A stretch of 64,000 bases of DNA. Origin: Cyanidioschyzon merolae (lineage: Eukaryota). The notes under the pieces were generated by a model. The model saw nothing but the letters and a program-made list of their open reading frames with translations, was not told the origin of the DNA and did not search any database. The stretch lies in the NCBI GenBank assembly GCA_000091205.1, contig AP006498.2; one strand, given 5' to 3'. Below, in pieces: positions 7,691 through 64,000 of this stretch (its first letter is position 1; each line of letters opens with the position of its first letter). Position numbers and translations under genes: made by a program.

Positions 7691-7818
7691 AACGAAACGC
7701 CGTGTACACTCCTTGTACGTTCTTGTCGTTGGAGCTGGCGTAGTTCCTTTTTGGGTCTTCCAACGCCCTGCTCAGTATGCCACAACGAGCCTCTGACTTT
7801 GATCCTCTTTGAAGGCAC

Positions 7819-33802: not shown

Positions 33803-34302
33803 AACATGAGGGCAAAACGCTCAGATGCGCATGGAATTCTCGCCGGGACGTCCAGGCGAGCTCTGATCGCTGCGGCCTTCCAGATCAATCTGGTGGCGAT
33901 GCGAAGTCGCTGCAGCGCACGCGCACACTGCACCTTCTAGGCGGAAGGGTTGCGTCGGAGACGCGATGCGCCAGCGGGGAATCGCGCCGACGCTCTCCGC
34001 GGGATACCAAGGGCGCTCTGCCTCTGTGGTGGATCCGCATTGGCGATTTAGGCACCGTTGCGGATGCCTGTGGCAGGCTCTCGACGCACGATGGAATGTG
34101 ACGAATAACCAGTGCCTCCGAGCTGCAAAGGATGGGTACTGGAACTTGGACATAGGAGCGTGGAACGATGGCTGCTTCACCGTTCGCTGATATCAAGCGC
34201 GCAATCAGAAAGGCCCGGCCGCTGTGCGTGTGTGTCAACGTTCTTTCAAACAAGAATGACCGCGCCCTGTATTCGCGCAAAACGATCGCAGTTTGGTTAT
34301 AG

Positions 34303-38001: not shown

Positions 38002-38956
38002 CAGGCACCGGCAGTGAAACAGTTCACAGCATATGTTCTGTCAAACAGAAACCGATTATTGATGTGCGGGCTTCATATCAATTTTCATCAGTTTCCGTTG
38101 TAGTGACGGAGTGGAGGTTGCGGAACTGGTTCAGGGACGTAGGCAGGTACCCAAGCGCTGTGTTGCGACGCTAGCGCGCGCATCGCTGGATAGACTGGAA
38201 GAGAACGCTCGTCGACTTCATCCCCTGCATATAATTTGCAGTGAGCGTGCTCATGACGTGCGTTTCGATGTCGCTTGTGATACGGTACACCTATAGGGAA
38301 GAGCGCGCTGTAGAATTGAAGCTTTTCGCAAGTGCACTCGGGCGATGCGTAGACCTTGTCTTCTTCTAGTCATTCACGTATCCAAGATAGTCGTCGCAGG
38401 ACAAATGTGCAACGTTCAATGCCTGCAGTTTTCAATCTAGGCGCTCGAATTCGAGCACTTCATCTCAGACGGAAGCGCAGCTCGCAAACGCAACGGGAAA
38501 CAGTTCATGCACTTCCACATGCTGAACGCCTAGGTGTCTCCACCGTATCATATCTGTAACCTAGGAATTTAACGGTCTGCAGATCCGTTTGATCAATAGT
38601 CACATTCCAGCAGGCGATAAAGTACAGCTTCCAGGCGAACTTCTTGATGAGGAGTGACCCGAACTCTGCACTTGTGAGGGCGAAGCGTTTAGCGCCTTAT
38701 ATCCGGGATCGCCGGAGCTCGAACAATTCGGGCCTGAGGCTGCAAAACTTGGCCAACCTTGGGAAGTCACCGGGAGGCTGTACGCTGAGGGCAGAACCAT
38801 TCTCTGTTATTTATCCGTCATCATGGATGACCAAAGCTATTCTGGGCGTTTTCAGAAAAGCGCTGCAGGTTCGTATGCAAACCTAGACCCAGGTCATACT
38901 CGCGTAAGACTGAACCGGAGCAGATTCACTTTGGTAACTCGGACGCACACGCTGGA

Positions 38957-40290
38957 GCTTTGGTCACTTCCCACTGTGACCAACGCCAGGTTTTTCGAAC
39001 CTTCTCTGAGACTGCTTCGTTTTCCCCCCGCCTGAGTCCGGATAGAAAAACGCGGGCGTCTCCTTTCCCTGTACAACCGTTGTTAGCAGTCGAAAGATAT
39101 TCACGGCAGCTTCCGGGTCCCGGCTTCGATGCTTCCAGCTGCTATCCATGCAATGGTTGCACCGACGGTAGTTGCGTTGAACGCCTCGCTTGCCGTCTCC
39201 ACCTTGTTTCTATGCAACTTCGGTGTACCCTCGGCAACGGTGCCACTTGACTGTGAGCAGGTGTTCTCGAGTGTCCGCCACCACACCCATTCAGAGCGCC
39301 TCGCCATGCCACGTGAGCAACGCTCGCTTCACCGCTCGCTGTACGCTCTGGACGAGTACAGAAGGCTCCCGTGGGTGCCTCTTCCGTGTCTGCAGCCCAG
39401 TGCAGTGGCCCGTGACCATGGGCTCGTTCGAGGTAGTGCCCTCGCCGAGTACTCGCTCTGGTGCACATGCCGGCGCACGCCGTTCTGCTGGACACTAGAA
39501 CTTTGGATCGCGGAGTTCCCGATGACGGAGCAAGGACCGCATGGAAAAGCCAGGCTGGTGAGGAGGCCGTCCAGTCTCGATGCGTCTACGCTCCCTTCGC
39601 GCTACGCGGTGACGCATCGTGTAATGGAAGCGACCGCTGCGGTGATTCGAGGTCTAGTCCATGACCCTTTTGAATGCAGAGAGAAGAGCGGGGAGCCTCT
39701 CGGTGCATGTGCTGTGAACGTTATCAGACTGTTGCCAGGGTCCATATTGTCGACGACCACAAAGGCGGGCGGCTTTGTCATTCGAAAGGCATCGATTATT
39801 TGTCGTGACAAGTGCAGTGAAGCGTAGGCATGAGCTTGTGAACAGGTCGCCAAGCGACGATATCGAGTGTATTTCCCCGTCAGCCCAGCGGTGCGAATTG
39901 TTGCACCCACGAGTTGCCTCGGAACAGAGCGATCGCCATCTCGAAGAATGGATGATTAGAGCATGTCAGGCGTACACCGGGCGGAGCCGCTGGAAGCTTG
40001 TTGGCGTGATTGGATGCAGCAATTGGTTATTGTATGAATCCTCTTTCGAGGGCGTGGCATGTTGTCTTGGTTCCAATGAAGTACGGAATTCCGGCTTCGG
40101 TGCGTCGGAGCATAGGAGCATCGAAGGAAAGAGTCGTTCTGGAAACACGACTGAGCATCCCAGCACTACGTATGCATCCATAAACCCGTATTGCTGCATT
40201 TCGTATCCCAATGCTGTGCTTCTCAAAAAAAAAAGTCCAGAAAGATCGCTTACGAGAAACGGAGCGGGCCGTTCAGCGTGCCATTTTAAT
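38957..40290. repeat. Left arm (~1.33 kb) of a near-identical inverted repeat flanking the O-methyltransferase gene
   Basis: ORFs 39129-39827 (+) and 39775-40341 (+) reappear reverse-complemented at 42452-42904 (-) and 41992-42504 (-) with ~98-99% amino-acid identity. Junctions map to 'ggtcacttcccactgtgacc' (outer) and 'gccattttaat' (inner). Confidence 0.85.
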
Positions 40291-40575
40291 TGGACTTGCC
40301 TACATAGCACTGCACGGGCTAGGCATCGTTTCGCTCGTTGACCACCGTGGCCGCATATTCGTCACCATACATTCCACTCATACGTTCGCAAAGTGTGAAA
40401 CACACTCTATCAAGGGTCTGCTAACCCAAACAAGAAGCGTGTCGCAACGCAGCAGAGCAAATGCCGCCCATCGTTCCAGCCTCCTCCCATTCTGAGCAGT
40501 GGCGCGTGCCAGGAGATAACGTAGGCTCTGGAATCAAACGGGAACCTGCGCTGCCGTGGAATCTCGGGATACTGG

Positions 40576-41607
40576 GTGCTTGCTCAAGGCCAAAGGTCTT
40601 CAAGAGAGCCCCAGATGGTTTTTCTCGAAAAGCTCGACGACTTGCTCAAAGGATATGCGCCTGCTCGTGTTGTTATGACTGGATTCGAGCTCGGTGTCTT
40701 TACGATGATCGCTGAAGGAAAGACTACTGCGGAGGAGGTAGCCCGTGCTGCAGCGTCTTCGACCCGCGGGATGCGCATGCTTCTGGACGCTTTGACTAGT
40801 CTGGAGCTCCTGCAAAAACACAATGATCGCTACCAGCTGGTGCCGGGATCCGAGGCAGCGCTTGTGAAAAGCAGTCCTCAGTACATCGGTTCTATGTGGG
40901 AGACGAACCACCTGTGGAGCGCGTGGAGCGCGCTCACCCAAGTTGTGCGTACAGGCAAGCCCTACACTCGCCTCGAAACCGAGAGCGACGCAGCGCGCTT
41001 TTTCCCTATGCTGATCCGCAGTCTACACGTTTACAACTTGGAGCCAGCCCGTAAACTCGCCGGGCTTCTGTTACCATCACAGATACCACCAGACAGTCGT
41101 GTTCTCGATGTTGCCTGTGGAAGTGCCGTCTGGAGTATCCCTTTCGCGGAAGCGTCTTCAGAGGTACGACTTGATCTCCTTGATTTCGGGGATGCGCTTG
41201 CTGTGGCACGGAGCTATGTTGAACGGCATAAGGTGGATGCCCAGGTTTCGTACATCCAAGGGGACTTGAAACATACAGACTTGGAGAATGATCGATATCA
41301 TCTTATTATTCTCGGGAATATCGTTCATTCGGAAGGGGCAGCCTCATCTCGGGATCTCATTCAACGTTGTGCACGGGCGCTACGCTCAGGCGGCAAGCTC
41401 GCCATTATTGACCTGTTTCCGAATGAGGAGCGCACTGGACCGCCACGGGCAGTTCTCTTCGCCCTTAATATGCTTATTAACACTAGCGAAGGTGACGTTT
41501 TCAGTGTATCCGAGTATAACCAATGGTTCGAGGATGCAGGTTTGAGTGAAGGCACTCTAGTGCAACTGGGATCCACAACTACAGCGCTGCTGGCGGCTAA
41601 ACCCTGA
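40576..41607 (+). CDS. Class I SAM-dependent O-methyltransferase (Methyltransf_2 type with N-terminal dimerisation/winged-helix domain), bacterial secondary-metabolism-like
   Basis: N-terminal dimerisation-like region ('VVMTGFELGVFTMIAEGKTTAEEVA...MRMLLDALTSLELL'). SAM motif I 'RVLDVACGSAVWS'. Motif II 'HLIILGNIVHSEG'. Post-II 'LRSGGKLAIIDLF'. Confidence 0.75.
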   Translation: MLAQGQRSSREPQMVFLEKLDDLLKGYAPARVVMTGFELGVFTMIAEGKTTAEEVARAAASSTRGMRMLLDALTSLELLQKHNDRYQLVPGSEAALVKSSPQYIGSMWETNHLWSAWSALTQVVRTGKPYTRLETESDAARFFPMLIRSLHVYNLEPARKLAGLLLPSQIPPDSRVLDVACGSAVWSIPFAEASSEVRLDLLDFGDALAVARSYVERHKVDAQVSYIQGDLKHTDLENDRYHLIILGNIVHSEGAASSRDLIQRCARALRSGGKLAIIDLFPNEERTGPPRAVLFALNMLINTSEGDVFSVSEYNQWFEDAGLSEGTLVQLGSTTTALLAAKP

Positions 41608-41990
41608 GCAAGCGCAGCACCCGACGAGCACTGCTGGTTACTGCTGGGCAAGCAGTTACCAGATTCTCGGTGACATGATGTCGATCCAGCTGCAATACCG
41701 TCCTGAATAGGAACGCCGCAAAGTCATACGCAGATTAGAATAGTTTTAAAGAGGGATATCATTTCGGAGCCACTGACACATGGTTCGCAGACCAATCGGT
41801 TGGTGCACAGCGTTCGGGCAGCAGGTCGCCAGTGGTATGCAACAGAACTTGAGTGAACATAGAAGGCGGCAATAAACGGAAACGAGTATTCGTGTCATCG
41901 CTCGCTTTGGTAGCAAGATCATCCCCTGTACAATGCATCCGGGAGAAGTCAGTCTCTCGAGTGCAGATATAGGCACTGCTCGCATACCAG

Positions 41991-43316
41991 ATTAAAATGG
42001 CACGCTGAACGGCCCGCTCCGTTTCTCGTAAGCGATCTTTCTGGACTTTTTTTTGAGAAGCACAGCATTGGGATACGAAATGCAGCAATACGGGTTTATG
42101 GATGCATACGTAGTGCTGGGATGCTCAGTCGTGTTTCCAGAACGACTCTTTCCTTCGATGCTCCTATGCTCCGACGCACCGAAGCCGGAATTCCGTACAT
42201 CATCGGAACCAAGACAACATGCCACGCCCTCGAAAGAGGATTCATACAATAACCAATCGCTGCATCCAATCACGCCAACAAGCTTCCAGCGGCTCCGCCC
42301 GGTGTACGCCTGACATGCTCTAATCATGCATTCTTCGAGATGGCGATCGCTCTGTTCCGAGGCAACTCGTGGGTGCAACAATTCGCACCGCTGGGCTGAC
42401 GGGGAAATACACTCGATATCGTCGCTTGGCGACCTGTTCACAAGCTCATGCCTACGCTTCACTGCACTTGTCACGACAAATAATCGATGCCTTTCGAATG
42501 ACAAAGCCGCCCGCCTTTGTGGTCGTCGACAATATGGAACCTGGCAACAGTCTGATAACGTTCACAGCACATGCACCGAGAGGCTCCCCGCTCTTCTCCC
42601 TGCATTCAAAAGGGTCATGGACTAGACCTCGAATCACCGCAGCGGTCGCTTCCATTACACGATGCGTCACCGCGTAGCGCGAAGGGAGCGTAGACGCATC
42701 GAGACTGGACGGCCTCCTCACCAGCCTGGCTTTTCCATGCGGTCCTTGCTCCGTCATCGGGAACTCCGCGATCCAAAGTTCTAGTGTCCAGCAGAACGGC
42801 GTGCGCCGGCATGTGCACCAGAGCGAGTACTCGGCGAGGGCACTACCTCGAACGAGCCCGTGGTCACGGGCCACTGCACTGGGCTGCAGACCCGGAAGAG
42901 GCACCCACGGGAGCCTTCTCTACTCGTCCAGAGCGTACAGCGAGCGGTGAAGCGAGCGTTGCTCACGTGGCATAGCGAGGCGCTCTGAATAGGTGTGGTG
43001 GCGGACACTCGAGAACACCTGCTCACAGTCAAGTGGCACCGTTGCCGAGGGTACACCGAAGTTGCATAGAAACAAGGTGGAGACGGCAAGCGAGGCGTTC
43101 AACGCAACTACCGTCGGTGCAGCCATTGCATGGATAGCAGCTGGAAGCATCGAAGCCGGGACCCGGAAGCTGCCGTGAATATCTTTCGACTGCTGACAAC
43201 GGTTGTACAGGGAAAGGAGACGCCCGCGTTTTTCTATCCGGACTCAGGCGGGGGAAAACGAAGCAGTCTCAGAGAAGGTTCGAAAAACCTGACGTTGGTC
43301 ACAGTGGGAAGTGACC
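41991..43316. repeat. Right arm (~1.33 kb) of the inverted repeat flanking the O-methyltransferase gene
   Basis: Reverse complement of 38957-40290. Identical ORF pairs (e.g. 39461-39664 equals 42615-42818 at 67/67 aa). Confidence 0.85.
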
Positions 43317-43709
43317 CAGATTTACTGCGTACGCGATAGTAAGTAGACATGTTCCAGTTTAGGTCGATAAGGGTGTAAGGCACAGATACAGCGAATCTCG
43401 TGGAATACTACATGCGAAGGGCACCGCCTAGCGTACGCATGAGCTGCGCGTTGTACCCAAAACTGCAAAAGATTGCTCGCATGACTCAGATGCAGGTGCC
43501 TTGTCGGTAGGAAGTGCACATACGCGGCGTGCATGCGTCTCTTCTTGTCGTTGGCACGCTGCCAATGGCGGCTCTTGCATCACTGAGCACCTTCGACAGT
43601 TCGCTCGTACACGTCGTGCCCGAATAGAAATCTCGAAGCGCGAGGAGGACACGGTTCGGTGGTCGCTTTGAGGCGTGCACTGAGCGCCGCACCACAGCTG
43701 AACGCTGGC

Positions 43710-45191
43710 TTATGAGTGCGTCGCAGTGGACGCATCGCCGAAACGCTTTCGCGTCAACGGAATACCAGCTGCTCGGAGTACTCGCCGCATCTGGGTCGAA
43801 AGACCAAGCTCCTCCAGAGCTATCGCCCGTACCCAGCGACCTTGATCTCCATCATCCAGAAAGCATGGATTACCTGTAACTTCCACCCGAAACACCTGAA
43901 TATCCTGCCGAATATGCGTGAAGAGGTGCCGCACCATCTTTGGTATCGGGGTGATGGATACAACACTCAGCTTAAACGATTTCTGGGAATTGAGCGCTGC
44001 AGCAAGTTGTCTGAACACTTCCGATCCGGCCGCGCTCTCCCCGCCATCTTTCTCTTCCGGTTCGATGAATCCTTGCTGCGCTAGCGGATGCGGGTCAGCA
44101 TGGGGCAGGCGCTCCACCACGATGTTCGGTACCTCCCAGAGGCCACCAAGCAGGCCGTGCGAGGCGCGGCGTCTGACGTAATACAATGTCTCTGTGCTGT
44201 CTGACGCGGCATGAGGAGCAACAGAAGCGACCAACACGAAAGCTAAAAGCAGTTCTTGGCGAGCTCTGACGCGCGGCATATGACGTTGCAATTTCAGTTT
44301 TCCCTCGGAGATTTCCGCAACACCATAGGGCGTACTCTGCCGAACCGAAATGGGAAGCGCGGCCGCCCTGCAAAACTTCTGAACTGGGCACACCGCACAT
44401 GCCTCTTCTGTTACCTGTGCCGTGCACAGAGATCTCCCGAGGTCGAAAACAGCCTGGTTCCAGTCCCCTGGCCGGTTTGCATCCACGAGCTCCGAAGCTA
44501 CCGCTGCTAGGAGGCGCTTTCCATCTCCTTTCCACACGTTCGTGCAGCACATGCCAGCAAGGCGCGATACGACTCTCGTTGCGTTGCCATCGATTGCGGG
44601 AACCACTGCCCCGAACGCTATCGAGGCGATGGCGCTGGCAGTGTACACCCCAATACCTGGAACTTGTTCCAGATCCCGGACGGATGCGGGTATTTTGCCA
44701 CGGTTTTGTGCTACGATCCACTTGGCACCGGCGTGCAGCATCCGAGCACGGCGGTAGTATCCGAGGCCGGCCCACTGCTGCAACACCTCTTCCTCGGTAG
44801 CCGCAGCGAGCGCCTCAACGGTCGGAAAGCGTCGCATCCACTCCATGAAATACATCTCTACTGTCTTGACTCGAGTCTGCTGAAGCATCACTTCACTGAC
44901 GTAGACTTGGTAGGGATCGGGACGACCGCCCCGTTGGCGCCACGGTAACTGTAGCGCCTGGCTGTCGTACCAGCGCAAAAGTGCGCCCCGTAGCTGAGCA
45001 AGCTCTTCGAGGTCCCAAAGTCTCAGCTTTTCCGTAGCGAGGTGCTGGTGTCGAGCACTGCCACGCTTCGTGTGCGAGTTGAGCTGAACGTTGCGCTCTT
45101 TCATGTGAGCTGGAGCGGCTACCTTCTTGTGGCACAAGTTTGGTTTCAGAATGGACCCGCTTCGTCTAAGCGCACACACACTATAGGCCAT
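43710..45191 (-). CDS. MUTYH: A/G-specific adenine DNA glycosylase MutY/MUTYH (HhH-GPD + [4Fe-4S] + NUDIX-like C-terminal domain)
   Basis: 'LLRWYDSQALQLPWRQ', 'PYQVYVSEVMLQQTRVKTV', 'LQQWAGLGYYRRARMLHAGAKWIV', 'VPGIGVYTASAIASIAFG', 'VPAIDGNATRVVSRL' and the Cys cluster 'CTAQVTEEACAVCPVQKFC'. Confidence 0.85.
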   Translation of the reverse strand: MAYSVCALRRSGSILKPNLCHKKVAAPAHMKERNVQLNSHTKRGSARHQHLATEKLRLWDLEELAQLRGALLRWYDSQALQLPWRQRGGRPDPYQVYVSEVMLQQTRVKTVEMYFMEWMRRFPTVEALAAATEEEVLQQWAGLGYYRRARMLHAGAKWIVAQNRGKIPASVRDLEQVPGIGVYTASAIASIAFGAVVPAIDGNATRVVSRLAGMCCTNVWKGDGKRLLAAVASELVDANRPGDWNQAVFDLGRSLCTAQVTEEACAVCPVQKFCRAAALPISVRQSTPYGVAEISEGKLKLQRHMPRVRARQELLLAFVLVASVAPHAASDSTETLYYVRRRASHGLLGGLWEVPNIVVERLPHADPHPLAQQGFIEPEEKDGGESAAGSEVFRQLAAALNSQKSFKLSVVSITPIPKMVRHLFTHIRQDIQVFRVEVTGNPCFLDDGDQGRWVRAIALEELGLSTQMRRVLRAAGIPLTRKRFGDASTATHS

Positions 45192-48075: not shown

Positions 48076-51000
48076 CGCTCGTAAGCCGGTACACCCGGGA
48101 GCACTGAATATCGGAATGCCTGCACCGCCACACCCGTTTTTATTTTGTTTGTTTGTTTTTCTTGCAGGTATTCAACATAAGCGGTTTATTGTGTGGATTG
48201 AGGCAAAGTTGCTGGGAGAATTTATGCTAGCGTTCATAGCTTGGGAACAACCGCCTTACTTGGACGAAGTCAGTCGAGATTCGGTCAGCAGCTGAATGAA
48301 CCAATCCACCACCAGTACGTATTCTGAACATCGTGCATCCAAAACAGCACAAGTCAAACGCTATCAAGATGCATATATCCTGGTGAATCCATCATGCTAC
48401 GTACATTGTTTGCGCAATATTATCAAAGACGCTACAGAAAGTAACTTATCCGTGCCTTTGATACAAACGTGGATGAAGAGATACGGATGGACAGCGGAAA
48501 GCCCGCGCTGCGATTCGAGACGCTCGCGCACCCAATCACGGACAATCACGTTCGGTACCGAAACGCGAACGCTTCCTACATGAGCGACCGGATTTCGTGT
48601 CAGTCGCCAAGACTTCATTCAGCAGCTGTGGTAGACCTGTATATGAGCACGCTATGGCGGGCAAACCGCTTCCTGGAAGAAGAGACATGCGAGCATGACG
48701 ACAATATCAGCCCTGGCGGCGATGCTCTTGCCTGGTCGCCTACGAATCGTAACACGGACATGATCGTCCAGTGGGCCATGCTTCGTCGGACCACGTTCCG
48801 TGGCTTCTTCTTCTCACATTTTTCTGCCCGTCTCGTAGATAACGTCACTATCCATCACGCCAGTGCGGTTCCGGAGCATGTATCAGGCAGTAGCACTGAG
48901 CTGCTCTTCGTGTGAGTCTGTTCGTCCTGGTGCAATGCAGCCGAGTGCGTCTTCTCTGTTCTAGAACTGTCTTTTTTCCACTCGCCAATCAATAGACTAG
49001 TCGTTCGCATCCATGGCGCGGAAAGATGCAGGACGTCACAGAGGTTCACATAACAACGGATTCGAACAATGCTCGCCTGGTTTCATTCGCCTTGAAGCAT
49101 CCCATCAAGTATCTGTTCGTACGAGTCCCGGACGCAGGGCAACCGGGCGTCCATATTTCTCTGGAGTTTTTCCATCAGGAATTCGTGTGACAACGCAAGG
49201 GATGCTCAGTGCAGGGGATTCCATGCGGACTGATCCTAAGGATAGAGACATGCACACACGCTTCCTAAAATACTCGGACGCGTCTCCGTGCCATCTCGGG
49301 AATGGAAACGTCTCTAGAGCAGGTGCCAAAGAGTATGAAACGATCCTCAGAATCCAAAACAATTTGCGGGCCAACGTCGAGCGCTCCATGGTGCACATCC
49401 TGTGGACGTTGTACTGTTTTGTTGCCTCACTTTACTGGCCCAGAGAAACAGAAACGGATGGGATAGGTTCCTGAAGTCTGGACCGGAGCAAGTGACAAGC
49501 TGCTGGTGACGGAGCAGCTGGAGCTGCAAGCAAGTTCGGAGCACATGTCGTACCGAGAGCGAGAATCGCCTCTGTTCTGACAAGCTCATCGTGTTGAGCC
49601 CGGACTCGGTTCGACAGACGTCGTATGCAAAGCACGGCTGAAACCTAGTTTCTGCCTTTCTTCATGTTGCGCTACTACGTTTTCGTGAACAGATCCCTAC
49701 ACAGCAAAGCAGATATGCCCTCCGAATCGGAACGAGCTGACCGTTTGATGCGCCCCTGCCACGCAGTCCACATACACCTCATGAAAGCGCATGAAATTGC
49801 CCTAGACATTTGCGTAGTGTGCTTCATGGCCTTCTCGGTGCGCTACGCATACTCTCGGCGAACGCGTATTAAGCATTCGCACTACCTTGCGAGGAGCATT
49901 GGCGGGGCTCGTTCATGATTAACCGTTTGCAGGGAGGATATGGACAGAGGTTCATAGGATCCATAAAAACCTACGGACCATCAGTCTCACTGCACGCTGT
50001 GAAACCCAGGCATGAGTCGAGCAGCGAAACGTACTTTCATTTGTTCAATGTAGACGAAGAGAAAGATAAGGCAGCGGGCATGGGTCCCGGTTTCAAGAGT
50101 ATCGTGGCCATTGCGGCAGCTCTGTGCCAAGACGACAGCGCCAAAGATCCGAAAGCACATGAAGGTGGTTGGCTTTGTCAGGCTGAAGCACGATCGGCAT
50201 TCATGCATGATAGACGCCAGGAGGCACACCAGCAAGCGGAATGACTTCATCAGCGCTTGCCTCAACGCTCTGAGCAATGAATCGGGCGGCGAGGGAGTTC
50301 TCTCTACACCTCTTTCTGAGAGAATAAGCGCGTCGAAACTGCTCTCGCGAAAGATCTTTTGTGCGATTACGTGAGATACCCGCGAGATTTGCCAACGGTT
50401 TCGGCTGCACGGAGCCTAGAGACAGGCATTCGCCGAGTTTTCCAGTCAGCTGCAAAAGGAAATGACCGATCAATCGCGTCGTTTGGTGCTAGCCTATGCC
50501 GCTGGACATGCTGCAGCGTACAATAGCTGCACTGGTGCTCCTTCGACAAGCGCGCGCACCAAGTACAGGAATCGACTCTGAACGAGTACCGTCAATGATT
50601 TCACGACGATTTAGGCGCATCACGACCACGGGTGTACACCAAAAACCTGCATAGAAGAAGAGAGTGAAACAGAGCCGCATCCGCCGGGTTGTGTAGGCAA
50701 GTTGAACTAACGTCGGTTAGGGAAGCAATCAAAGGTGCAAGTCGTGCTTTGGTACGCCTCCGCAAGCAACCATGCCCGCGAGCATGCTCTGCACGGAGAC
50801 TTGAAAGCCTGGATCAACATCCGGAAATATTTCGTGGATCTGAAGCATTCAGCGGCATTGTTTGGAGCAAACTTGTCACGAGAATATTGAGTACTCTTTG
50901 TTCGCATCATGCTGAAATACGGAAGACTTTCGCTGAGATGAAAACAGCACCCAGTCTACGAAGCATTGGATTCCAGCCCAGAAGAAGGCACAGGACCGGA

Positions 51001-54202: not shown

Positions 54203-56390
54203 CGTTCGAGGGCGCTGTGACTGTCATGCATTGCTTGATCGCTGCAATTTGTGTGTCCTGATCATACGTTCCAATAATCCCGCTCAGGCCGGGTGTGGAA
54301 TGTGACGCTGCCTGGCCTCGAAGAGTTCCTCGCATGTTGCTGGCGGCCAAGAAACATGCAGGGTGATGTGTTCGCCCAGGCTCGCGCTCGGCAGGCGTTT
54401 CAAGTGCATCGCGTGCAACCGCGTTGCTAGCGCCCAAAGTTAGCAACTGAGGGTCCTCAAAGCGCTTACGTATAGAGCTTGTAAAGACTTGTTTCATCCA
54501 GCTTTGCAGGTGCTAGCGTTGTCACCAATCGAAACGAAGCACTCAGCTCCGTGGCTTCGCCTTTGTTGTGGAGTCGGCAAGAGCGGAAGAGCGTTGCCCG
54601 GCAGCGCCTTGTCGACTATTCTCGTAGCAGTCACGAAGCAACTTCAGAGGTTCCTGGCAAGCGGACCAGTCTCGGTCGTGCTCGCCAAGGCAGGCCTCTA
54701 GTCGCTCGTACGCCTCCCTGCACCCGTGCAACTCGAGAACCTGCTCTATATCGCAAGACGTCGACTCAGAGTTTGTACGCATTTTGTTCTATAGCATTCG
54801 AGATAGATACCGCCTGAGCCTAGACTTGTACGCTATCAAGCTCTTGACGCAGCGCGCTTGCCGAAATAGGTTTTAACGGCGAGTACGCAGTCGAACGGAT
54901 GAACGACGCGCGGTTGCAGGGGTCGGCGCGTCGCGGATGCTGCGCGCAGCTTCCAGCTCAAGATCGCTTCTCCGCAGTGCGGCATCGCCGCTACCACAGT
55001 TATGAAGACGATCTTGTCTCGCGATCCCGATAGAGCACAGTGTAGTGCCGGGACGGTGGACTTGCGGACCGACGATATCGATCCAAACCGTCGGTAGAAG
55101 AACGTCCGCTGCACCGATTGGTTGCTGTGATGCATATCAACTCGAAGTTCGGGCCTAAGAAGCACCTGGACTGGTGTCAGCGCTATGGAGTTCGAGAAAC
55201 TAGCACCACTTGGAGTTGGTAACGCGTGCCGCGCTGGGTTGACGGTCTCTGGGCTGTTTGTAAGTTCGGCAAGTTTTGATATGTCTGTCGAGGTACCAGC
55301 GTGCGCCTTGCTCTGGAGATTTTGTAGAGCGTCATGGATAGCTCGAAGCCACCATGAACGCTTGATTTTTTGAAGTAAACGTTCTGCTTCTCGGATTTTC
55401 GGTGGTGCACCCGACGAAAAGACCCGTAAGACCTGAGTACGCGAAAGGAAAACGTGACCAAGGAACATTATCCAAGTGTAGCATGAGCGTTCTCAGCGAT
55501 TGCCCACTTCTCCATCATCGTTCAAACCGTCGCTTGTTTTTCTAATGCCACGAGCTCGTGGCTGGCTCACATCGAACTAGGCAGCACCCCAGGTGCAATG
55601 ATCCCAAAATATCAACAGGATGATGCGCCCAGCGCTGCGGATGAAATCATTACGGTTCGATTGCATCGTCCAAAACGCCTGTTGGACAATGTTTACATCT
55701 GAAACGCTCCCAGAAGACTGAAATCAGAGAGCATGAGCTCTTTTAAGCGGCGCCTTCCGTCATGTGCCTGGATGAATCGCAGGCTCGCGGTGACGATCTC
55801 AAACCAAGAGACTGTCACGAGCGATCGTTGATCGAGGACGCCTGCAGGCTTTGGCACCACAGCGTTCCAGCCGGAATGCGCATCAGGCGTCCAGGTCGGG
55901 CTCGCTGAACGATGTCGTGCTGTTTCGACGAGACTGCTATATGGGAATCGACTTGCACGTTATCGCGAGTGGAGCAGTCTCTACATGCAGTCGCGATTGC
56001 TCATGCATGCGCGCGTTATCCTGAAACAAGCTTGGAAACGCAGGATCTGTTGCAGCGCTTCAGTGGGCCCGAAACGGCTTATTACAGGGTCGTTCACCCT
56101 GCAACTTTAGCTGAGACGCGCTACCACGAGTGTGATCCATCTATCGTCATTAGTATGATGAAAAAAAATTGCGCCTATTGCATTAACCAGTGATGCTTCC
56201 TACGGTCCATGATTCGAACGATTCACTTTTCCCATCCTTTTCCGTCAAGCACGAAATCCGGGTGGAAAATACGCTTGCAGCATCCTTATATCACAACTTG
56301 AGCCTAGAGGTTGCACGCGCGAGTCCATCCATCATTGTCCGTGGAGAGTAGCCGCTGGAAAGGGCATTCCATTTCCGACGCCGCAGTCAG

Positions 56391-57252
56391 CACGAATGTC
56401 AGACATAAATGGGAGGGATCCACGAATAGAACGCGGGCGGTGGCTCTGAAATTAGTGTGCCTCGCAATGCCACTGGCACCAGCGTTGGCGGGCCTATGCT
56501 GCGACTGCGTCCTAGTCCCCGCTCCGCCATCTCCGACTTGGAATACGCAAGTCGCTCGCATGCCCCCGATTCCTTCAGTAGGAATCTGGTGATTTCGGTG
56601 GCAGCCTCCGGGCGCCGATGTCGCAGTTCCCGACTGTTGTCGACGCGTTTCGTGTGCAGACGATGGTTGCATCTATGCGTTGCGTGTCATTCACATGCGC
56701 CTTACATTCAGCCTCACTGCGACCTTCGCAACCGGGTGACACCTGACTTTGGACGCGTTTCCCCGTATGCCTACATCATGCTGTCCTGACCCAAAGGCCA
56801 CGAAGACGTTGCGCGTGAACACTTGCTGCATCTCTCGGTACACGCTTTGTACGTGTACAGAAGGCTCGCCTCGATGCCCGCCTGAACGTTTGCGCCCGGT
56901 GCTGCGCGCTACGATCACGGGTTTCTTCTGGGCGATCCTGTAGGGCGCGTATACTGTCCGCTACACGCGCTCGCTCTTCTACTCGCAAAGCGATTTCTGG
57001 GAAGCGAAGTTGACCGTGATGTACCGAGCACCGGAGGGGAATCCTTGCTGAAGATCAAGCAGCGTAATAAGGATGCGTCTAGGCTCCCTGCATTCGTGCA
57101 GAGCTTCGATGCATGCTGCCATGCAAGCGATCGCTGCGATGACTCAAGTCCACGCCCGAGACCCATTTTCACGCGAACAGAAGAGACCAGAGCGCCTGGA
57201 AGCATATTCCGTGGTAGGTATCATGCCATTGGCGAATGTCGTTTCGCCGATG
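56391..57252. repeat. Left arm (~0.86 kb) of second near-identical inverted repeat pair
   Basis: ORFs 56915-57205 (-), 57045-57359 (+), 56457-56789 (+) and 56304-56672 (-) recur reverse-complemented at 61319-61609, 61132-61479, 61735-62067 and 61852-62313. Junctions map to 'cacgaatgtcagac' (outer) and 'gtcgtttc(g/a)ccga' (inner). Confidence 0.85.
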
Positions 57253-57870
57253 GCGACTCGGAAATTCGGATTTGTCTTTCGAACGGAAGCGATTACTTGA
57301 CTTGCCAAAGCTCAGCCAACCCTCTGCATGAATCTGTTCAACAAGTCGTCTCGAGATGAGGTATAGCTCTTTCTCGTCGTCATTCCGGCGGCGCGAAACT
57401 CTTCAACGAAGAGTGCCTATGGAAGCGAACGATCGAAAACTTCAATAACCCGTGATTTGAGCACGCTACTAGCCATGAAAGCAGTAGAGTGCGGACTTGT
57501 ACACCTGAATAGGATCATGGTATTCAATGTTTTACAAACCCTTGTTCGAAGTCGTCGCGTATCATCTTGATTCCTATGACGTGAGGAATTCCAGACGCAA
57601 AGCGTTGAAGCAGCCACCCACTGAAAAACAGCCGCGAATCCTTAGAAGTCGTACGAATCCATACGCCGTGATTCCTAGACTTTGAATACCGACGCTTTGC
57701 ATCTATACATGGACCGGGAGCAAATCGAATTGCAGGAACCGAGCGAGCAGCCCAATATTCCTCATAAATCCGACACGGGCATAGCGTGCGGTCGAACACG
57801 GGTCAGTGGTGGAGCATCCGCTGGATGCACCTGTCCTGGCGATCGCCAAGTCGATACTGTTTGCCTATCT

Positions 57871-60078
57871 TTAGAGTATAAAGAAACGCACAATGCGTTC
57901 AGCATAGGGACGGACCAGTTCCAGCTGCTGAACGATGTCATTCTTGATAACCAGGTTCACGAAGATGTAGGCCGCGATGACAGCAAGTGCCAAGCGACCG
58001 AGAACTTTCTCCGCCAGACCGGAACGGACAACATCCCGTACGTTCGTACGGATCCAGGTCACGAGCTCCTCGTCGCTCATGACACTAAGCTGCTCCCGAA
58101 TGAGTTTCAGTTCATCGGCCAGTGGCTTTGGAGCAATCGTGCCTGTTGTCTTGTCGTTTTCAAGCACCGGAGGTTTTGTGTCGGATATGGACCGAGCGCT
58201 TGCCGACCAGTCTCTGGTGTTAGCGTCGATGGGCACTTGCGTTGTGCTTGCTGCGCGCATGTCTTGAATGCTTTGTTGTAAACGAAACACGACATCCTCG
58301 CGTTTCTTGAGTCGCTCAACAGCCGCCTTCCAGAGCTTCGCACCCTCGGTTTCGGCGGTGTAGAGCTCACCGTCCCAATCGTAGCCACCAGTGAAAAGCT
58401 GGGAGAGTTCGCGGCGCAAGTTTTCGTCGAGAGGGCGCCCACGTAGACTTGTTATCCCACGCTTTTCTGCTTCTCGAATTGAGAATTCCGCATCTGGGTT
58501 CGACGGATCCAAGATTCCTTCTAGGAAGGGCGCCAGCGCCTTTCTCGCTGAAGCAAGGTCCTCGACTGCTGCTTCCATAAAGGCGCGACGTTGTTCAGGA
58601 GTGGCCAGTCGCATGGCGCGCTCTGCCTCTTCCGTGGGTTGCTCCGTCAGTTTCGATAGGGACGCATATTTGCACAGAATGGCTTCAATGTCGAGCCTCT
58701 CGCTTTTCAGCTTCTGTTCGAACTCACTAAAGTTACGCTTGCATATCTCCTCCAGCTTCCGCTCAAACTCTTCTTGATATGTTTCCCAGGACAGTTGGGG
58801 GTCTTCAGTGATCACCTCGTCATCGGGACGCCCGAGCGCCGCCAAACGTCGCTGGAACTGAGCCCAAGCCGTCGCTACACCACTTGCCACGGCAGCTGTC
58901 TCCGAGGCGTGCTCGGTGTGGATACGCCGCAGTGCTGTTTCGAGCTGTGCGCTTGTCATCTTCAGAGTCTTGTTTGCCTGCTCGCGGCTGTAGCCCATGA
59001 ACGCGTTTGCGCGCGCAGCTAGATACAAGAGCTGCAAGCGCAAAAGCAACAACAAGTTGCCGAAAACGCGAATCACGAGCGCTGCTGTATGCTGCGGCTC
59101 AGCCTCGCTGGACGGATCTCTAGTCCAGAAAGCGCTCTGCGTTCGTGAAGATAACTCTGGTTGCGTGCCCCTGACGTGACGCACGCGATCGCCGGCAAAG
59201 GTTCCAGATTTGACAAGGTTTCGAGATAGCGTTCCGACCTGTGCCCTGAATTCACGAGCGACTCGAGTTCCAGCGTTCGCGAAATAGCGTAACGCCTGTG
59301 ATGCGATGCTCAAAAACTTCTGACTCGCCTCGTGGAACAGGCTTACATTCGCACTGGCCACGACGAGGAGCGCTGCTGAGATAATCAAGAAGAAGAGTAG
59401 CGGAATGATGTTGGCGAGGGCTTTCCTGTTCGACGGCGATACTGAAGCACCAGAGGGATTCGTCACGATCATGGCTATTGTTGCCCGTTGAGCTTCGACT
59501 CGTGCATTGGTGTAGAGCATGCTCGCCGTCGACGCTCGAGTCTCTCCCGGGAACGGGTCACCACTAGGGATAGATACCGCTCGGCAGCATGCAGCAGTCC
59601 TTGCCTTCTTTGCGCAACCATGACGCTGTATGGTCACCATCGCGCGCCTTTTGCGAGCATAGCTATCTGTTTCAGAAAATTTTTCCCCAGAGAGCAACTT
59701 AGTTTGAAGCTTGATCCTTTTGTGCACAGTGCGTTTCGGCGCCTGCTCGTTCAATTTTCGTACGAAATAAGGCTCACGGAATGCAAATACACTCAGCAGG
59801 TCTTTGCGTCGATGCTCGGACTTGAGCGTCAATCGCCATCGACAAGGCAGCGCGTTTTCGCAAAAGCGCCACGTGCGTATACCTCCTAAAAACGAACAGA
59901 GAAAGCCGTTTCGTGTGGCGGCATTCTTGCTTATCGTAAACTCGGCCCCTAAACTTTGTTTTGCCGGTTGGAAAACGCGCAACCGTTCGCTTGTGGTTGC
60001 TAGCGACCCTGGGTTCGCTGCCCGCTCGCCAGCACCGAGCAGCCCCAGTGACTGGTGCAGCCAAGCTAACTCGCCCAT
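57871..60078 (-). CDS. Hypothetical coiled-coil protein with two transmembrane segments
   Basis: Hydrophobic 'ALANIIPLLFFLIISAALLVVASA' and C-terminal 'LALAVIAAYIFVNLVI'. Long heptad-like acidic/basic stretches lie between. The first ~185 codons look non-coding, so the likely start is the Met at about 59520 ('MLYTNARVEAQRA'). Confidence 0.4.
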   Translation of the reverse strand: MGELAWLHQSLGLLGAGERAANPGSLATTSERLRVFQPAKQSLGAEFTISKNAATRNGFLCSFLGGIRTWRFCENALPCRWRLTLKSEHRRKDLLSVFAFREPYFVRKLNEQAPKRTVHKRIKLQTKLLSGEKFSETDSYARKRRAMVTIQRHGCAKKARTAACCRAVSIPSGDPFPGETRASTASMLYTNARVEAQRATIAMIVTNPSGASVSPSNRKALANIIPLLFFLIISAALLVVASANVSLFHEASQKFLSIASQALRYFANAGTRVAREFRAQVGTLSRNLVKSGTFAGDRVRHVRGTQPELSSRTQSAFWTRDPSSEAEPQHTAALVIRVFGNLLLLLRLQLLYLAARANAFMGYSREQANKTLKMTSAQLETALRRIHTEHASETAAVASGVATAWAQFQRRLAALGRPDDEVITEDPQLSWETYQEEFERKLEEICKRNFSEFEQKLKSERLDIEAILCKYASLSKLTEQPTEEAERAMRLATPEQRRAFMEAAVEDLASARKALAPFLEGILDPSNPDAEFSIREAEKRGITSLRGRPLDENLRRELSQLFTGGYDWDGELYTAETEGAKLWKAAVERLKKREDVVFRLQQSIQDMRAASTTQVPIDANTRDWSASARSISDTKPPVLENDKTTGTIAPKPLADELKLIREQLSVMSDEELVTWIRTNVRDVVRSGLAEKVLGRLALAVIAAYIFVNLVIKNDIVQQLELVRPYAERIVRFFIL

Positions 60079-60268
60079 GGTATGTGCACGTTCACCTCAG
60101 CTTCTAGTTTCTTTCGCACACGATGTCTCTGCATGAGGCTGAACCGTCGCCCCTCGTATCCTATGAAACGTACTTTTGAGCGTTTCCGCGCACCCAGCAC
60201 TGCCTTCGCCGCCCTAGCACTATTCAAAAGCGCGCTCTTTGAGCGGCCTTCAAATCGGCAATCCGTAA

Positions 60269-60898
60269 GAGCATCCGCGCGATCGACGATGACTGCTGAG
60301 CACTCAGCGATGCCTAGGTCAGACTTGTCTCAAATGCAAGTCTTTCACCTCAATTGTGTTCCACAGCTAGGCGCTTGTCATGAACTGCTTTTTCGCGGTT
60401 TATAGGCGACGCCTTCCAAATGCGTCCATTTGATGACATGAAAAGGCTAAGGGGAAGGTATGGACATGCAGGAGGGGGTTTCGAGGGACCGATGTTGCCG
60501 TGTGCTGGGAGAAGTACGAAAAATATCCCCTTTTCACGGACTATCAAGCAAAGAAGAGCAAGTGACGTAGAAGAGTACGAAAAGAGCATCCGCGCGATCG
60601 ACGATGACTGATGAGCACTCAGCGATGCCTAGGTCAGACTTGTCTCAAATGCAAGTCTTTCACCTCAATTGTGTTCCACAGCTAGGCGCTTGTCATGAAC
60701 TGCTTTTTCGCGGTTTATAGGCGACGCCTTCCAAATGCGTCCATTTGATGACATGAAAAGGCTAAGGGGAAGGTATGGACATGCAGGAGGGGGTTTCGAG
60801 GGACCGATGTTGCCGTGTGCTGGGTGAAGTACGAAAAATATCCCCTTTTCACGGACTATCAAGCAAAGAAGAGCAAGTGACGTAGAAGAGTACGAAGA
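60269..60898. repeat. Tandem duplication, 315-bp unit x2 (near-identical)
   Basis: 'gagcatccgcgcgatcgacgatgactg(c/a)tgagcactcagcgatgcctaggtcagacttgtctcaaatgcaag...' starts at 60269 and again at 60584. It generates twin ORFs 60350-60589 (-) and 60665-61096 (-) sharing a 60-aa C-terminus. Confidence 0.85.
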
Positions 60899-60956
60899 AA
60901 GAGAGTGGAGATAGACGAGGAAGGTTTTCGTCCCACGAGCCAATGACGGGGCTGTA

Positions 60957-61280
60957 ATGGCACAAAGGACAAGCGTTCGAGGAATCCTTACAGAGGTGAA
61001 TCGAATCAGCTGCACTGCATACATGAAATTCGTAAAACGAGACTTCAAAGCCGCCATCAATGTCAGACGATGTCTGGTACTGAAGACGAGACCCACTGAG
61101 CTGAACCGAGAGAACTTCTTGAGGCGTCAGCTCAGACTCGAAGTTTGCGCGGAGAAACTGAAACCAATAGCAGGCGGCCGGTCCAAAAAGCAGGCAGACC
61201 TCTGCGAAAGGATGCGCGTATACAACCTACGTGATCGCGAGCTGCTCTTCTTTTTGCCGACCATAGATAAGATTCGGTGA
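60957..61280 (+). pseudogene. Relic C-terminal fragment of a Fanzor/TnpB-like gene (RuvC-III 'RDFKAAINVRR' + tail)
   Basis: 'KFVKRDFKAAINVRRC...LRLEVCAEKLKPIAGGRSKK' aligns with the 7160-7690 copy ('EFVNRDFNAAINVRS...LKVELYEKKLEAVVGAGRER'). Its stop codon (61278-61280) coincides with the inner boundary of the right inverted-repeat arm. Confidence 0.55.
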
Positions 61281-62133
61281 AACGACATTTGCCAATGGCA
61301 TGATACCTACCACGGAATATGCTTCCAGGCGCTATGGTCTCTTCTGTTCGCGTGAAAATGGGTCTCGGGCGTGGACTTGAGTCATCGCAGCGATCGCTTG
61401 CATGGCAGCATGCATCGAAGCTCTGCACGAATGCAGGGAGCCTAGACGCATCCTTATTACGCTGCTTGATCTTCAGCAAGGATTCCCCTCCGGTGCTCGG
61501 TACATCACGGTCAACTTCGCTTCCCAGAAATCGCTTTGCGAGTAGAAGAGCGAGCGCGTGTAGCGGACAGTATACGCGCCCTACAGGATCGCCCAGAAGA
61601 AACCCGTGATCGTAGCGCGCAGCACCGGGCGCAAACGTTCAGGCGGGCATCGAGGCGAGCCTTCTGTACACGTACAAAGCGTGTACCGAGAGATGCAGCA
61701 AGTGTTCACGCGCAACGTCTTCGTGGCCTTTGGGTCAGGACAGCATGCTGTAGGCATACGGGGAAACGCGTCCAAAGTCAGGTGTCACCCGGTTGCGAAG
61801 GTCGCAGTGAGGCTGAATGTAAGGCGCATGTGAATGACACGCAACGCATAGATGCAACCATCGTCTGCACACGAAACGCGTCGACAACAGTCGGGAACTG
61901 CGACATCGGCGCCCGGAGGCTGCCACCGAAATCACCAGATTCCTACTGAAGGAATCGGGGGCATGCGAGCGACTTGCGTATTCCAAGTCGGAGATGGCGG
62001 AGCGGGGACTAGGACGCAGTCGCAGCATAGGCCCGCCAACGCTGGTGCCAGTGGCATTGCGAGGCACACTAATTTCAGAGCCACCGCCCGCGTTCTATTC
62101 GTGGATCCCTCCCATTTATGTCTGACATTCGTG
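61278..62133. repeat. Right arm (~0.86 kb) of second inverted repeat pair
   Basis: Reverse complement of 56391-57252. For example, 96/96 aa with one substitution between 56915-57205 and 61319-61609. Confidence 0.85.
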
Positions 62134-62775
62134 AAGAGCGCGCCGCGTCGACTACTTTGCCGCGATGCGCGCCGCTTTCGTGGCGACGGTGTCGCGGATA
62201 CTCGCAGGCACACGACCTTCGGTGGATCGTTGCCATCCCAGGCACGTCCGCTGGCAATCGTTCGGCCATGTATGCGACGCATCACGAGTTCCGCCTGGAA
62301 TGTGAAGCGATGAACGCCATCCGATCGCGATCATAGGATCGACATCGATGCCCTGAAATCCACACACAGCATCTCATACGCTTGCCTGACCGTGCTCCCT
62401 TTACCCCAGCGATCTGGTATCCAGAACAGATGCCGTCTCTTCGCCGAGGCACCTTCCATGACGCAGAACCTCTAACCCGCGCCTACGCTCTCTCCCTAGT
62501 TCCATCGGTCCTATTCAAAGCTCGCCGATACCGAATTGATAAATGTCATAGTTTGTGCGCTGCACCAAGAGTGCAGGTCGGGCGAGATGGATTCGCGCTT
62601 CCACCGCGTCGGCTGCTTGCCGTCGTCAGCGCTGGAACGACGCGGCACCTTCGCGCAGCAGGGCGATCTTGTGGCGCTCGTCGCCCGCGCAGGCTGCTGG
62701 GCAGCGTGAGCAGCCAGCGGATACGATCCCGTCGTACACAGCTGCAGCGGTACGAGGTATTCTGGTTGTAATTCG

Positions 62776-63558
62776 GTGATCAGGGTGTTCAAGATGTTCG
62801 GGTTTGTTATCCCAGCGAATAGGGCGAGGTTGCACCTTCACTACCCACAACCGAAGAACAATAACGGTTGTGTCTCAAGGCGTCGGTTAGGAGCGCTGCA
62901 AAAACCGCAGCTGCGCAAGCCCTGCCCGGTGGTCGCGTGCGCTCCGGGCAACAATACGCCGCCGTCGGTACCCGAAAAGACTACGGCTCGTCTGTCGCTC
63001 GCGCAGCGCTTGTCGATACCGCTGCTTACGATGACGACAACGATACCTGGCGTTGTTCTGGCTGCAGAGGAAACGGCGGCCCCGGAGTCACCTCTGAAAG
63101 CGCTCTTCAAAAGCTTGCCGCTGTCGCTTGTGCATCCACTGGTCATGGACGGTGTCCTGCTCGGAACGCTGTACGCATTCTATCTGGGGTACCAGGCGCG
63201 TACGATGCGTACGACCAAAGACAAGGAACTGAAGATGAAGCTGGCGCAGGCCAAACCCGGCGATCGGCACTATCAAATCGCGAGCATCCTTCTCGCCGTG
63301 ATGACGGTGACCACATTCGAGGGCATGGCCAATACGTACACTCGTACTGGGAAACTCTTTCCGGGACCGCATCTGTACGTTGGTCTGGCCTCGGTGGCGC
63401 TCATGAGCATGATGGCTAGCCTGGCACCGGCGATGCGGCGGGGGAATACCGCAGCGCGCAACGCACATTTTGCCATGGCGTTCGCAGTTACTGGCGGGCT
63501 TGTCTGGCAGCTTCAGAGCGGTTTCGAAATCGTGCTTAAGCTTTTAGGATGGAAGTAG
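62776..63558 (+). CDS. DUF4079-like (cyanobacterial/plastid-type) four-helix membrane protein with long N-terminal extension
   Basis: 'HPLVMDGVLLGTLYAFYLGYQARTMR' followed by three further hydrophobic helices. The pattern resembles DUF4079 as I remember it. The N-terminal 100 aa are presequence-like. Confidence 0.4.
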   Translation: MIRVFKMFGFVIPANRARLHLHYPQPKNNNGCVSRRRLGALQKPQLRKPCPVVACAPGNNTPPSVPEKTTARLSLAQRLSIPLLTMTTTIPGVVLAAEETAAPESPLKALFKSLPLSLVHPLVMDGVLLGTLYAFYLGYQARTMRTTKDKELKMKLAQAKPGDRHYQIASILLAVMTVTTFEGMANTYTRTGKLFPGPHLYVGLASVALMSMMASLAPAMRRGNTAARNAHFAMAFAVTGGLVWQLQSGFEIVLKLLGWK

Positions 63559-64000
63559 ATTGAGGTCCATCGTAAAGTGCTGTCGCAGGATCATGACAAC
63601 ATGATCGCAGCCGAGAAAAAGCGATCGACATAGAAGCACCAGAGCAGCATCACTCGGGCGGAGCGGTGATTTTCCCGCGCGACACGCATCGCATCATGCG
63701 TGTCTGCGCACGGATGCCGGCACCGATGCGTGCACACGTGCACGCATGTCATTCGAGTCGACAGCACACCGGCCGCACCTCGCCGGATGATGATACTTTG
63801 GAGCGCTTTACTTTTGATGATGCCTAGTTAAAGTTGCGAGCCAGTGCCTAGTTGTCATCGCTAAAATGCTGCGACGGCATGACGGGTAACGCACCGTTGC
63901 ATTGCAGCAACTGAGACGAGATGTTTCGGACCCGGCGCCTCGCTGAACACCGGTACAGCGCAGTCGCGAGTCGATCCGAACCAAACCATGCAACCAGTGA

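Follow-up and report, generated by a model that had tools for sequence, protein, structure and literature searches.

What is the 5.7-kb structure on chromosome 16 of Cyanidioschyzon merolae 10D in which two long, nearly identical inverted repeats enclose a single gene, CMP105C? The structure occupies positions 56391 to 62133 of the DNA analyzed here, a stretch of 64,000 nucleotides (nt) of contig AP006498.2 (GenBank assembly GCA_000091205.1), which is referred to below as the window and consists of compact eukaryotic sequence of ~55% GC. A sequence-only reading of this stretch, made before any database search, had viewed the repeats as possible long termini of one DNA transposon, MULE-like (resembling Mutator-like elements) or of the foldback type, that captured a host gene. 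The structure is instead of an ordinary kind and not a new mobile element. In our assessment, it very probably consists of two ancient, dead copies of one transposon that flank CMP105C in opposite orientations and have been kept nearly identical by gene conversion.

The inverted arms

The arms and the gene between them are located as follows.

56391 to 57250, no strand assigned: left arm, the near-identical tract, which is the outer 860 nt of the transposon copy B_L
61274 to 62133, no strand assigned: right arm, the near-identical tract that pairs with the left arm
57871 to 60078, minus strand: CMP105C, an orphan host gene of 735 amino acids, 100% identical to CYME_CMP105C of C. merolae 10D

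Local alignment of 56391-57250 with 62133-61274 covers 860 nt with 4 mismatches and no gaps, that is, 99.5% identity. The claimed ~0.86-kb inverted arms are therefore real, with bounds refined from 56391-57252 and 61278-62133 to those listed above; their near-identity stands as well, although the measured value exceeds the 98 to 99% initially judged. The mismatches are at 56776, 57190, 57234, and 57246, three of the four no more than 61 nt from the inner edge. The 34-nt outer end of the arm occurs twice in the window, against an expectation of zero.

An artefact of the reference assembly would be one way to obtain such an arrangement given that mis-joins can create inverted repeats, and two environmental contigs, L053 and L006, traverse arms in a flipped configuration. 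However, all four arm junctions were recovered in independent metagenome assemblies from several samples, at ~98 to 99% identity to the window: the junction between the left flank and the arm in contig L017, that between the arm and the left interior in L053, that between the right interior and the arm in both L041 and L053, and that between the arm and the right flank in L041. Mis-assembly, for which the sequence-only reading had suggested a check, is therefore excluded. A second, independent inverted pair in the window also speaks against an artefact, as does the completeness of the 10D genome, which the title of a 2007 paper by Nozaki et al. is said to describe as a 100%-complete sequence. 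Altogether, the probability of an artefact is negligible.

The arms are copies of a dispersed transposon

Comparison of the window with itself revealed the second inverted pair, denoted pair A, ~17 kb from the CMP105C structure, the arms of which are denoted pair B. The near-identical tract of pair A (38962-40290 and 41991-43316) extends over 1329 nt with 98.7% identity. Across the two pairs, the arms are homologous, with 57.6% identity over 1130 alignment columns, 25 of them with gaps, compared with ~42% for shuffled sequences.

A 21-nt motif common to the arms of both pairs was used to retrieve 56 metagenome loci, of which 42 contain the element, so that the arms, as had been suspected, are transposon-derived and multi-copy. 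Many of the retrieved contigs are ~99% identical to the window and represent environmental C. merolae-like strains. When the family matches were clustered at a threshold of at least 96% identity, 23 clusters were obtained, some of which are parts of one copy; there are ~20 distinct copies in these environmental loci, mostly solitary and full length. Fourteen distinct copies were aligned together with their flanks and used to build a family profile of 1399 positions for nhmmer searches. In this alignment, homology breaks off sharply on both sides of a ~1.4-kb unit, and the 28 termini, aligned jointly, share the consensus CTACACCCGTGTCAGAnTAAAATGGAACA at both ends in inverted orientation, which defines terminal inverted repeats (TIRs) of ~28 nt, degenerate as these are in individual copies. 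Each arm thus represents one copy of a nonautonomous DNA transposon of ~1.4 kb that is dispersed and has TIRs of its own.

Independent copies are 51 to 60% identical in pairwise comparisons, and their star-like relationships point to a single burst of amplification long ago; unlinked copies share ~56% identity and diverge by ~27% from the consensus. Given this level of decay, the two near-identical pairs are extreme outliers and not young insertions of an active family. The profile identifies five copies in the window, with strands given in the coding sense of the relics described below for pair B.

56388 to 57791, minus strand: B_L, full-length copy (profile positions 7-1398 of 1399, 1079 bits)
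61246 to 62137, plus strand: B_R, truncated copy (profile positions 6-878, 642 bits)
38892 to 40310, plus strand, and 41975 to 43379, minus strand: pair A, two full-length copies (profile positions 5-1396 and 6-1392)
5 to 320, plus strand: copy C, a fifth family copy that extends beyond the start of the window, leaving only its inner end (profile positions 1081-1397, E = 1.5e-66)

The outer end of B_L is at 56388; its inner end, at 57791, lies downstream of CMP105C, 80 nt from the stop codon of this gene. B_R lacks the inner ~520 nt, and the missing part was not found by nhmmer or blastn in 60079-61273; a likeness to it noticed by eye at ~60110-60160 was confirmed by neither program and was dismissed. 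The 860-nt arms are exactly what both copies retain. Pair A has the same inward-facing arrangement as pair B, around an O-methyltransferase gene (40576-41607, plus strand; Pfam PF00891 and PF08100). Copy C is complete in the orthologous contig L012 (6845-8234). Its inner end in the window lies ~400 nt upstream of an open reading frame (ORF) for a GH35 beta-galactosidase (734-3070).

These boundaries bear directly on the possibility that the structure is a single mobile element with ~0.86-kb TIRs (foldback, MULE-like, or Pack-type) that captured CMP105C. Such an element would account for near-identical inverted arms that bracket one gene, and pair A, in which homologous arms surround a different gene, superficially resembles another member of such a family with different cargo. 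However, the arms are independently bounded ~1.4-kb units with short TIRs of their own that are mostly solitary elsewhere. Furthermore, B_L extends 541 nt past the identity tract, with homology to pair A reaching ~57600-57790; the identity tract of pair A ends inside the element ends. The arms are 58% identical between the two structures, compared with ~99% within each pair. No target-site duplication was found outside 56391 and 62133, where the sequence-only reading had proposed to look for one: the flanking sequence is CGCCGCAGTCAG outside the left arm and AAGAGCGCGCCG outside the right arm, and the sole word common to both is CGCCGC, at an offset. There is also no significant homology that continues outside the arms beyond the element ends, and no MULE or foldback-type protein. 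The long-TIR interpretation is accordingly abandoned as very unlikely.

Coding relics in the family consensus

None of the ORFs in the arms (96 to 153 amino acids) yielded a Pfam match or an exact match in the protein collection, and the mismatches between the arms of pairs A and B show neither a third-position excess nor codon periodicity, with indels that are not multiples of three. The arms were therefore rejected as coding sequence, the ORFs being chance frames over decayed relics. They were also rejected as structured RNA or tRNA, given that the window contains no tRNA genes and no Rfam matches at gathering score. The initial impression that the arms have no recognizable domains thus holds for the individual ORFs but fails at the level of the family consensus, in which a DDE_3 domain, a Fanzor zinc ribbon, and an RD motif are discernible.

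On the reverse strand, one frame of the consensus reads ...FVAIDETAF...GYAPRGSR...FIMDNIAFHKSS and matches Pfam DDE_3 (PF13358; E = 3.5e-10, 40.3 bits against a cut-off of 28.6, profile positions 3-102 of 146); the matches of the consensus to HTH_33 and HTH_Tnp_Tc3_2 are weak. Another frame, CHRC...C..C...NRDLNAAINIL, matches the Cas12f1-like TNB / OrfB zinc ribbon (PF07282; E = 7.3e-7, 29.7 bits against a cut-off of 26.3), which is followed by NRDLNAAINIL. Both relics can be located in B_L.

56919 to 57617, minus strand: DDE_3 transposase relic, consensus amino acids 29-261 (tblastn, 45% over 235 amino acids, E = 4e-46)
56574 to 56882, minus strand: Fanzor/TnpB C-terminal relic (tblastn, E = 8e-9)

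Within the latter, the zinc-ribbon region is at 56736-56882 and a degenerate RD..NAA..NI motif at ~56574-56621; the mirror position of this motif in the right arm, 61903-61950, has decayed to RPEAATEITRFLL, as read from the sequence. B_R retains transposase amino acids 148-261 at 61267-61605 and a Fanzor C-terminal relic at 61642-61788.

Alignments of the transposase relic were obtained with the Mariner transposase of PUl-1, an element that carries Fanzor1 (E = 2e-6), and with an intact DDE_3 relative of 317 amino acids, P0006, that has the full domain (33% identity, 99% coverage); no annotated C. merolae protein was among the database matches. The family keeps the HTH domain and the first two thirds of the DDE_3 transposase along with the zinc-ribbon/RuvC-III end of Fanzor, all decayed. 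The Fanzor part comprises the last ~100 to 140 amino acids only, the N-terminal ~550 amino acids being deleted in every copy, and all family copies share the same internal deletion. No family copy contains a complete RuvC (D...E...D) nuclease ORF, and no intact autonomous copy was seen in the window or in the retrieved loci. The family is nonautonomous and derives, through internal deletion, from a mariner/IS630-type transposon with a Fanzor1 gene.

A CMe-1A relic abuts the truncated copy

The interior of the structure contains, in addition to CMP105C, a TnpB-like fragment and a tandem duplication. The published Fanzor1 element CMe-1A is present in C. merolae in ~150 copies of ~3.2 kb that are ~80% identical to their consensus; it was described without TIRs and left unclassified, and the first 635 bp of its consensus are reported to be 95% identical to TE-N2_CMe (PMC3627910). 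The CMe-1A consensus was taken from supplement 2 of Bao and Jurka 2013 (PMC3627910) and compared with the window using blastn.

60339 to 61262, plus strand: CMe-1A relic that lacks approximately consensus positions 1020-2818 through internal deletion
60267 to 60896, plus strand: tandem duplication, 2 × 315 bp (60267-60581 and 60582-60896; Tandem Repeats Finder, period 315, 2.0 copies, 99%)

Consensus positions 789-969 match both duplication units (60339-60523 and 60654-60838, 67 to 68% identity), and positions 2818-3084 match 60944-61205 (67% identity, E = 1e-30). The latter match is the Fanzor C terminus of the relic, which takes in the ORF at 60957-61280 and is 52% identical to CMe-1 amino acids 643-721 (tblastn). 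End-to-end alignment of the tail places the 3' end of the relic at ~61255-61262, ~12 nt before arm identity starts at 61274. Each 315-bp unit holds the 5' untranslated region (5'UTR) and the start-codon region of the CMe-1A relic. The matches in both units, in the C terminus, and in the 3' tail identify 60267-61262 as an internally deleted CMe-1A with a tandemly duplicated 5'UTR/start region. The TnpB-like fragment of the sequence-only reading is thus real and is a relic of a published element. The duplication is real, too, but not perfect as had been stated: it contains 2 mismatches (99.4%) and is located at 60267-60896 rather than 60269-60898. In the environmental contig L053, a single 315-bp unit (7601-7915) corresponds to 60267-60896, so that the duplication is either specific to 10D or was collapsed by short-read assembly. 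The possibility that the arms themselves are part of CMe-1A or TE-N2_CMe was rejected because they do not match the CMe-1A consensus.

The break in B_R falls inside its transposase relic and abuts the 3' end of the CMe-1A relic. Because the CMe-1A relic is only ~67% identical to its consensus and B_R is truncated against it, B_R is old.

Probable gene conversion between the arms

Why, then, are two old copies nearly identical? In 10D, the two arms differ from each other at 4 of 860 sites, whereas the same arm differs between 10D and the environmental contigs at 18 of 860. There are 17 arm sites at which 10D departs from both L053 and L041, and at every one of them, the two 10D arms share the 10D allele. 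For example, at 56448 and 56461, both 10D arms have G/C, whereas L017, anchored in the left flank, and L041 and L053, anchored in the right flank, all have A/T. Without conversion, ~17 arm-specific differences would be expected in 10D at a divergence of ~1% per lineage. These comparisons show that the arms evolve in concert.

Pair A adds evidence of a different kind. Within its tract, 1312 of 1329 positions are identical, compared with 40 of 72 in the outermost 70 nt of the element; the tract falls short of the element ends by 70 nt and ~20 nt, and the right-hand outer end is still recognized by a family profile from which the window copies were left out. Such a pattern is what a conversion tract within older copies leaves behind. 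Intrachromosomal gene conversion is the best explanation of the near-identity of the arms. Of the two origins that the sequence-only reading had offered, recent formation or ongoing gene conversion, the second is favored by the allele counts and the first is disfavored.

A recent origin of the second arm from an old, decayed copy, through local re-transposition, inverted segmental duplication, or a single long-tract ectopic conversion, is the least improbable of the alternatives and would mean that no continuous conversion operated over long periods. It would fit the 99.5% identity with just 4 differences and the observation that identity starts no more than 3 nt from the outer element terminus, as expected of a transposase-cut end, as well as the lack of homogenization in other close family pairs. 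However, B_R has one TIR only and is truncated at the CMe-1A relic; it is therefore older than the relic, unless the junction arose secondarily. Every copy and relic seen here has decayed, and no intact autonomous copy was found in the window or the loci. Both arms are present in environmental strains that are ~1 to 2% distant from 10D, and within 10D the arms resemble each other more closely than they do between strains. Finally, on both sides of the tract, the right copy of pair A still has the appearance of diverged element ends, so that a second copy must have existed beforehand. A recent second arm is, on this evidence, unlikely.

Several observations weigh against the conversion scenario or narrow it. 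Two other close pairs were found in environmental contigs, an inverted pair with outer ends facing, ~3.9 kb apart, in L021 (880-2306 and 6208-7078) and a direct pair ~2 kb apart in L031 (467-1859 and 3829-5224); both are only 59 to 60% identical, so proximity alone does not guarantee homogenization. The environmental arms come from short-read metagenome assemblies, which can blend both arms, and the environmental contigs of pair A contain mosaic alleles that probably result from such blending; the four-way allele argument therefore rests on few sites. In pair A, the divergence of the arms within the genome (1.3%) is greater than that between strains (~0.6 to 0.75%), so recent conversion is demonstrated only for pair B. 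The family is also locally over-represented: five copies, among them two inverted pairs that face inward, lie within 64 kb, for which chance insertion offers no obvious explanation. Finally, no consistent TA or other direct repeat is present at the copy termini, where the first TIR base is uncertain and the copies are ~27% diverged; because no TA target-site duplication is visible, the family is assigned to Tc1/mariner by its transposase relic and its TIRs.

The following scenario would accommodate these findings. A Tc1/mariner-IS630-type transposon carrying a Fanzor1 gene (the eukaryotic TnpB) would have given rise, by internal deletion, to the ~1.4-kb derivative, and the derivative family would have amplified once, long ago. 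Two copies would have inserted, in opposite orientation, into both intergenic regions flanking CMP105C. The right-hand copy would later have been struck by an insertion of CMe-1A, which then presumably suffered the loss of its middle and a duplication of 315 bp in its 5' part, and removed the inner ~520 nt of its host copy. As nearby inverted repeats, the two copies would keep copying onto each other by intrachromosomal gene conversion, so that the shared 860 nt remain 99.5% identical, the conversion tract being bounded by the element terminus on the outside and by the CMe-1A junction on the inside. We infer the order of these events, as well as that conversion is continuous rather than a one-off event and that nothing in the structure is mobile today.

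Other transposase and Fanzor relics in the window

Further remnants of the same kinds of elements are scattered over the window, including one complete CMe-1A.

7244 to 10457, minus strand: full-length CMe-1A copy, 83% identical to the published consensus, with the ORF split over several frames

A fragment of CMe-1A consensus positions 36-254, the portion common to TE-N2_CMe, is located at 33982-34206 (minus strand). At 22729-23740 (minus strand), a DDE_3 relic that reaches to approximately amino acid 270 of the intact relative of 317 amino acids is followed directly by a CMe-1-like Fanzor C terminus (CMe-1 amino acids 612-684, 57% amino acid identity). This is a transposase-Fanzor deletion derivative different from the arm family, and the fusion suggests that the CMe-1 Fanzor lineage was once carried by a mariner/IS630-type element. 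At 48832-48975 (plus strand), there is a DDE_3 C-terminal relic, and 1.2 kb downstream on the same strand a divergent Fanzor relic (50150-50827, 28% identity to CMe-1 amino acids 456-681); together, these possibly represent what is left of a full-length mariner-Fanzor parent element. Self-comparison also detected short tandem arrays at 15912-16197, 3982-4174, and 8190-8342, with periods of roughly 77, 65, and 75 bp, respectively, and 82 to 92% identity, the last of which sits within the full-length CMe-1A copy.

The enclosed gene

Among 5.8 billion proteins, CYME_CMP105C is the sole match for the enclosed ORF. The protein has no Pfam domains, and a search by protein for contigs encoding it returned no match. 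The ORF is intact in L053, where it shows 38 differences from 10D that are distributed uniformly among the codon positions; the codon changes comprise 12 synonymous and 24 nonsynonymous ones. The divergence of 1.7% is similar to that of the flanking dead transposon, and CMP105C evolves almost neutrally between strains.

Such a gene invites the idea of a composite transposon, in which the inverted copies provide outward-facing ends and the block of arm, gene, and arm moved or can move, with CMP105C or the O-methyltransferase as cargo. Compatible with this idea, both structures have the same element terminus, inverted, at their outer ends, the two blocks, 17 kb apart, contain exactly one gene each, and CMP105C is an orphan under weak constraint. 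Nevertheless, the outer ends have no target-site duplication, the transposase is long dead, and neither block was found a second time, be it in the window or among the 56 loci. Moreover, at one gene per ~3 kb, insertions in neighboring intergenic regions must bracket exactly one gene, and the arrangement is unaffected by the destruction of the inner end of B_R. There is accordingly little chance that the two blocks are composite transposons, and the arms are better regarded as separate old insertions homogenized by conversion.

Possible inversion of the enclosed segments

In two contigs, which come from different samples, the arms connect the flanks to the opposite ends of the interior. L053 (Ga0080006_1155930), which corresponds to 56391-64000 of the CMP105C structure, joins the right flank through the arm to the left interior end, as in a flipped isomer, and L006 (JGI24721J26819_10018827), which corresponds to 38962-45169 at pair A, does the same, whereas L041 shows the reference isomer. 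Both segments bounded by inverted repeats, one with CMP105C and the CMe-1A relic and the other with the O-methyltransferase gene, could be invertible cassettes, in which homologous recombination between the arms of 0.86 to 1.3 kb flips the enclosed gene and both orientations coexist in natural Cyanidioschyzon populations. We consider this possible but doubtful. L053 and L006 were not accepted as proof of inversion because a short-read assembler may choose such paths through a repeat arbitrarily.

Relation to known systems and implications

In the Fanzor1-carrying Tc/mariner elements of the PUl-1 and PGv-1 type, a mariner/IS630-type transposase is encoded upstream of Fanzor1 on the same strand, between TIRs of 24 to 33 nt (PMC3627910). 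The arm family resembles these elements in that its transposase relic aligns to that of PUl-1 and its 3' part contains the Fanzor zinc ribbon and RD motif. Unlike PUl-1 and PGv-1, which are 3.3 to 3.8 kb long, the arm family is a ~1.4-kb deletion derivative in which approximately two thirds of DDE_3 are fused to the last ~100 amino acids of Fanzor and all copies are decayed, and the TA target-site duplication that defines those elements is not detectable. CMe-1A is represented in the structure by the internal TnpB relic and the 315-bp unit, which are fragments of it; unlike CMe-1A, which was described without TIRs, the arm family has both TIRs and a transposase relic.

Inverted repeats maintained by gene conversion include Y-chromosome palindromes, plastid inverted repeats, and inverted Ty/delta pairs in yeast. 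As in these systems, the identity of the arms far exceeds that of unlinked paralogues, their bounds are sharp, and they are more alike within a genome than between strains. By contrast, the arms are much smaller (0.86 to 1.3 kb) and are dead transposon copies rather than genes, with no indication of a function. Inverted element copies that flank cargo and present identical, outward-facing termini are also characteristic of composite transposons of the Tn5/Tn10 type and of eukaryotic macrotransposons. Unlike these, however, the structures described here show no evidence of movement as a unit, no target-site duplication, and a dead transposase.

These results remove a candidate novel gene-capturing, long-TIR transposon and, in its place, define a previously unremarked TIR-bounded repeat family in C. 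merolae. For this species, a survey of MITEs (miniature inverted-repeat transposable elements) in plants reported none (PMC3964958). The results also link Fanzor relics of C. merolae to a mariner/IS630-type transposase, whereas the CMe-1A family had been left without classification (PMC3627910). At the level of the locus, the arms are a clear case of concerted evolution on a small scale, in which dead copies stay ~99% identical while their unlinked siblings have decayed to ~56%. In an alga, such arm pairs can serve as a natural indicator of intrachromosomal gene conversion and, possibly, of inversion.

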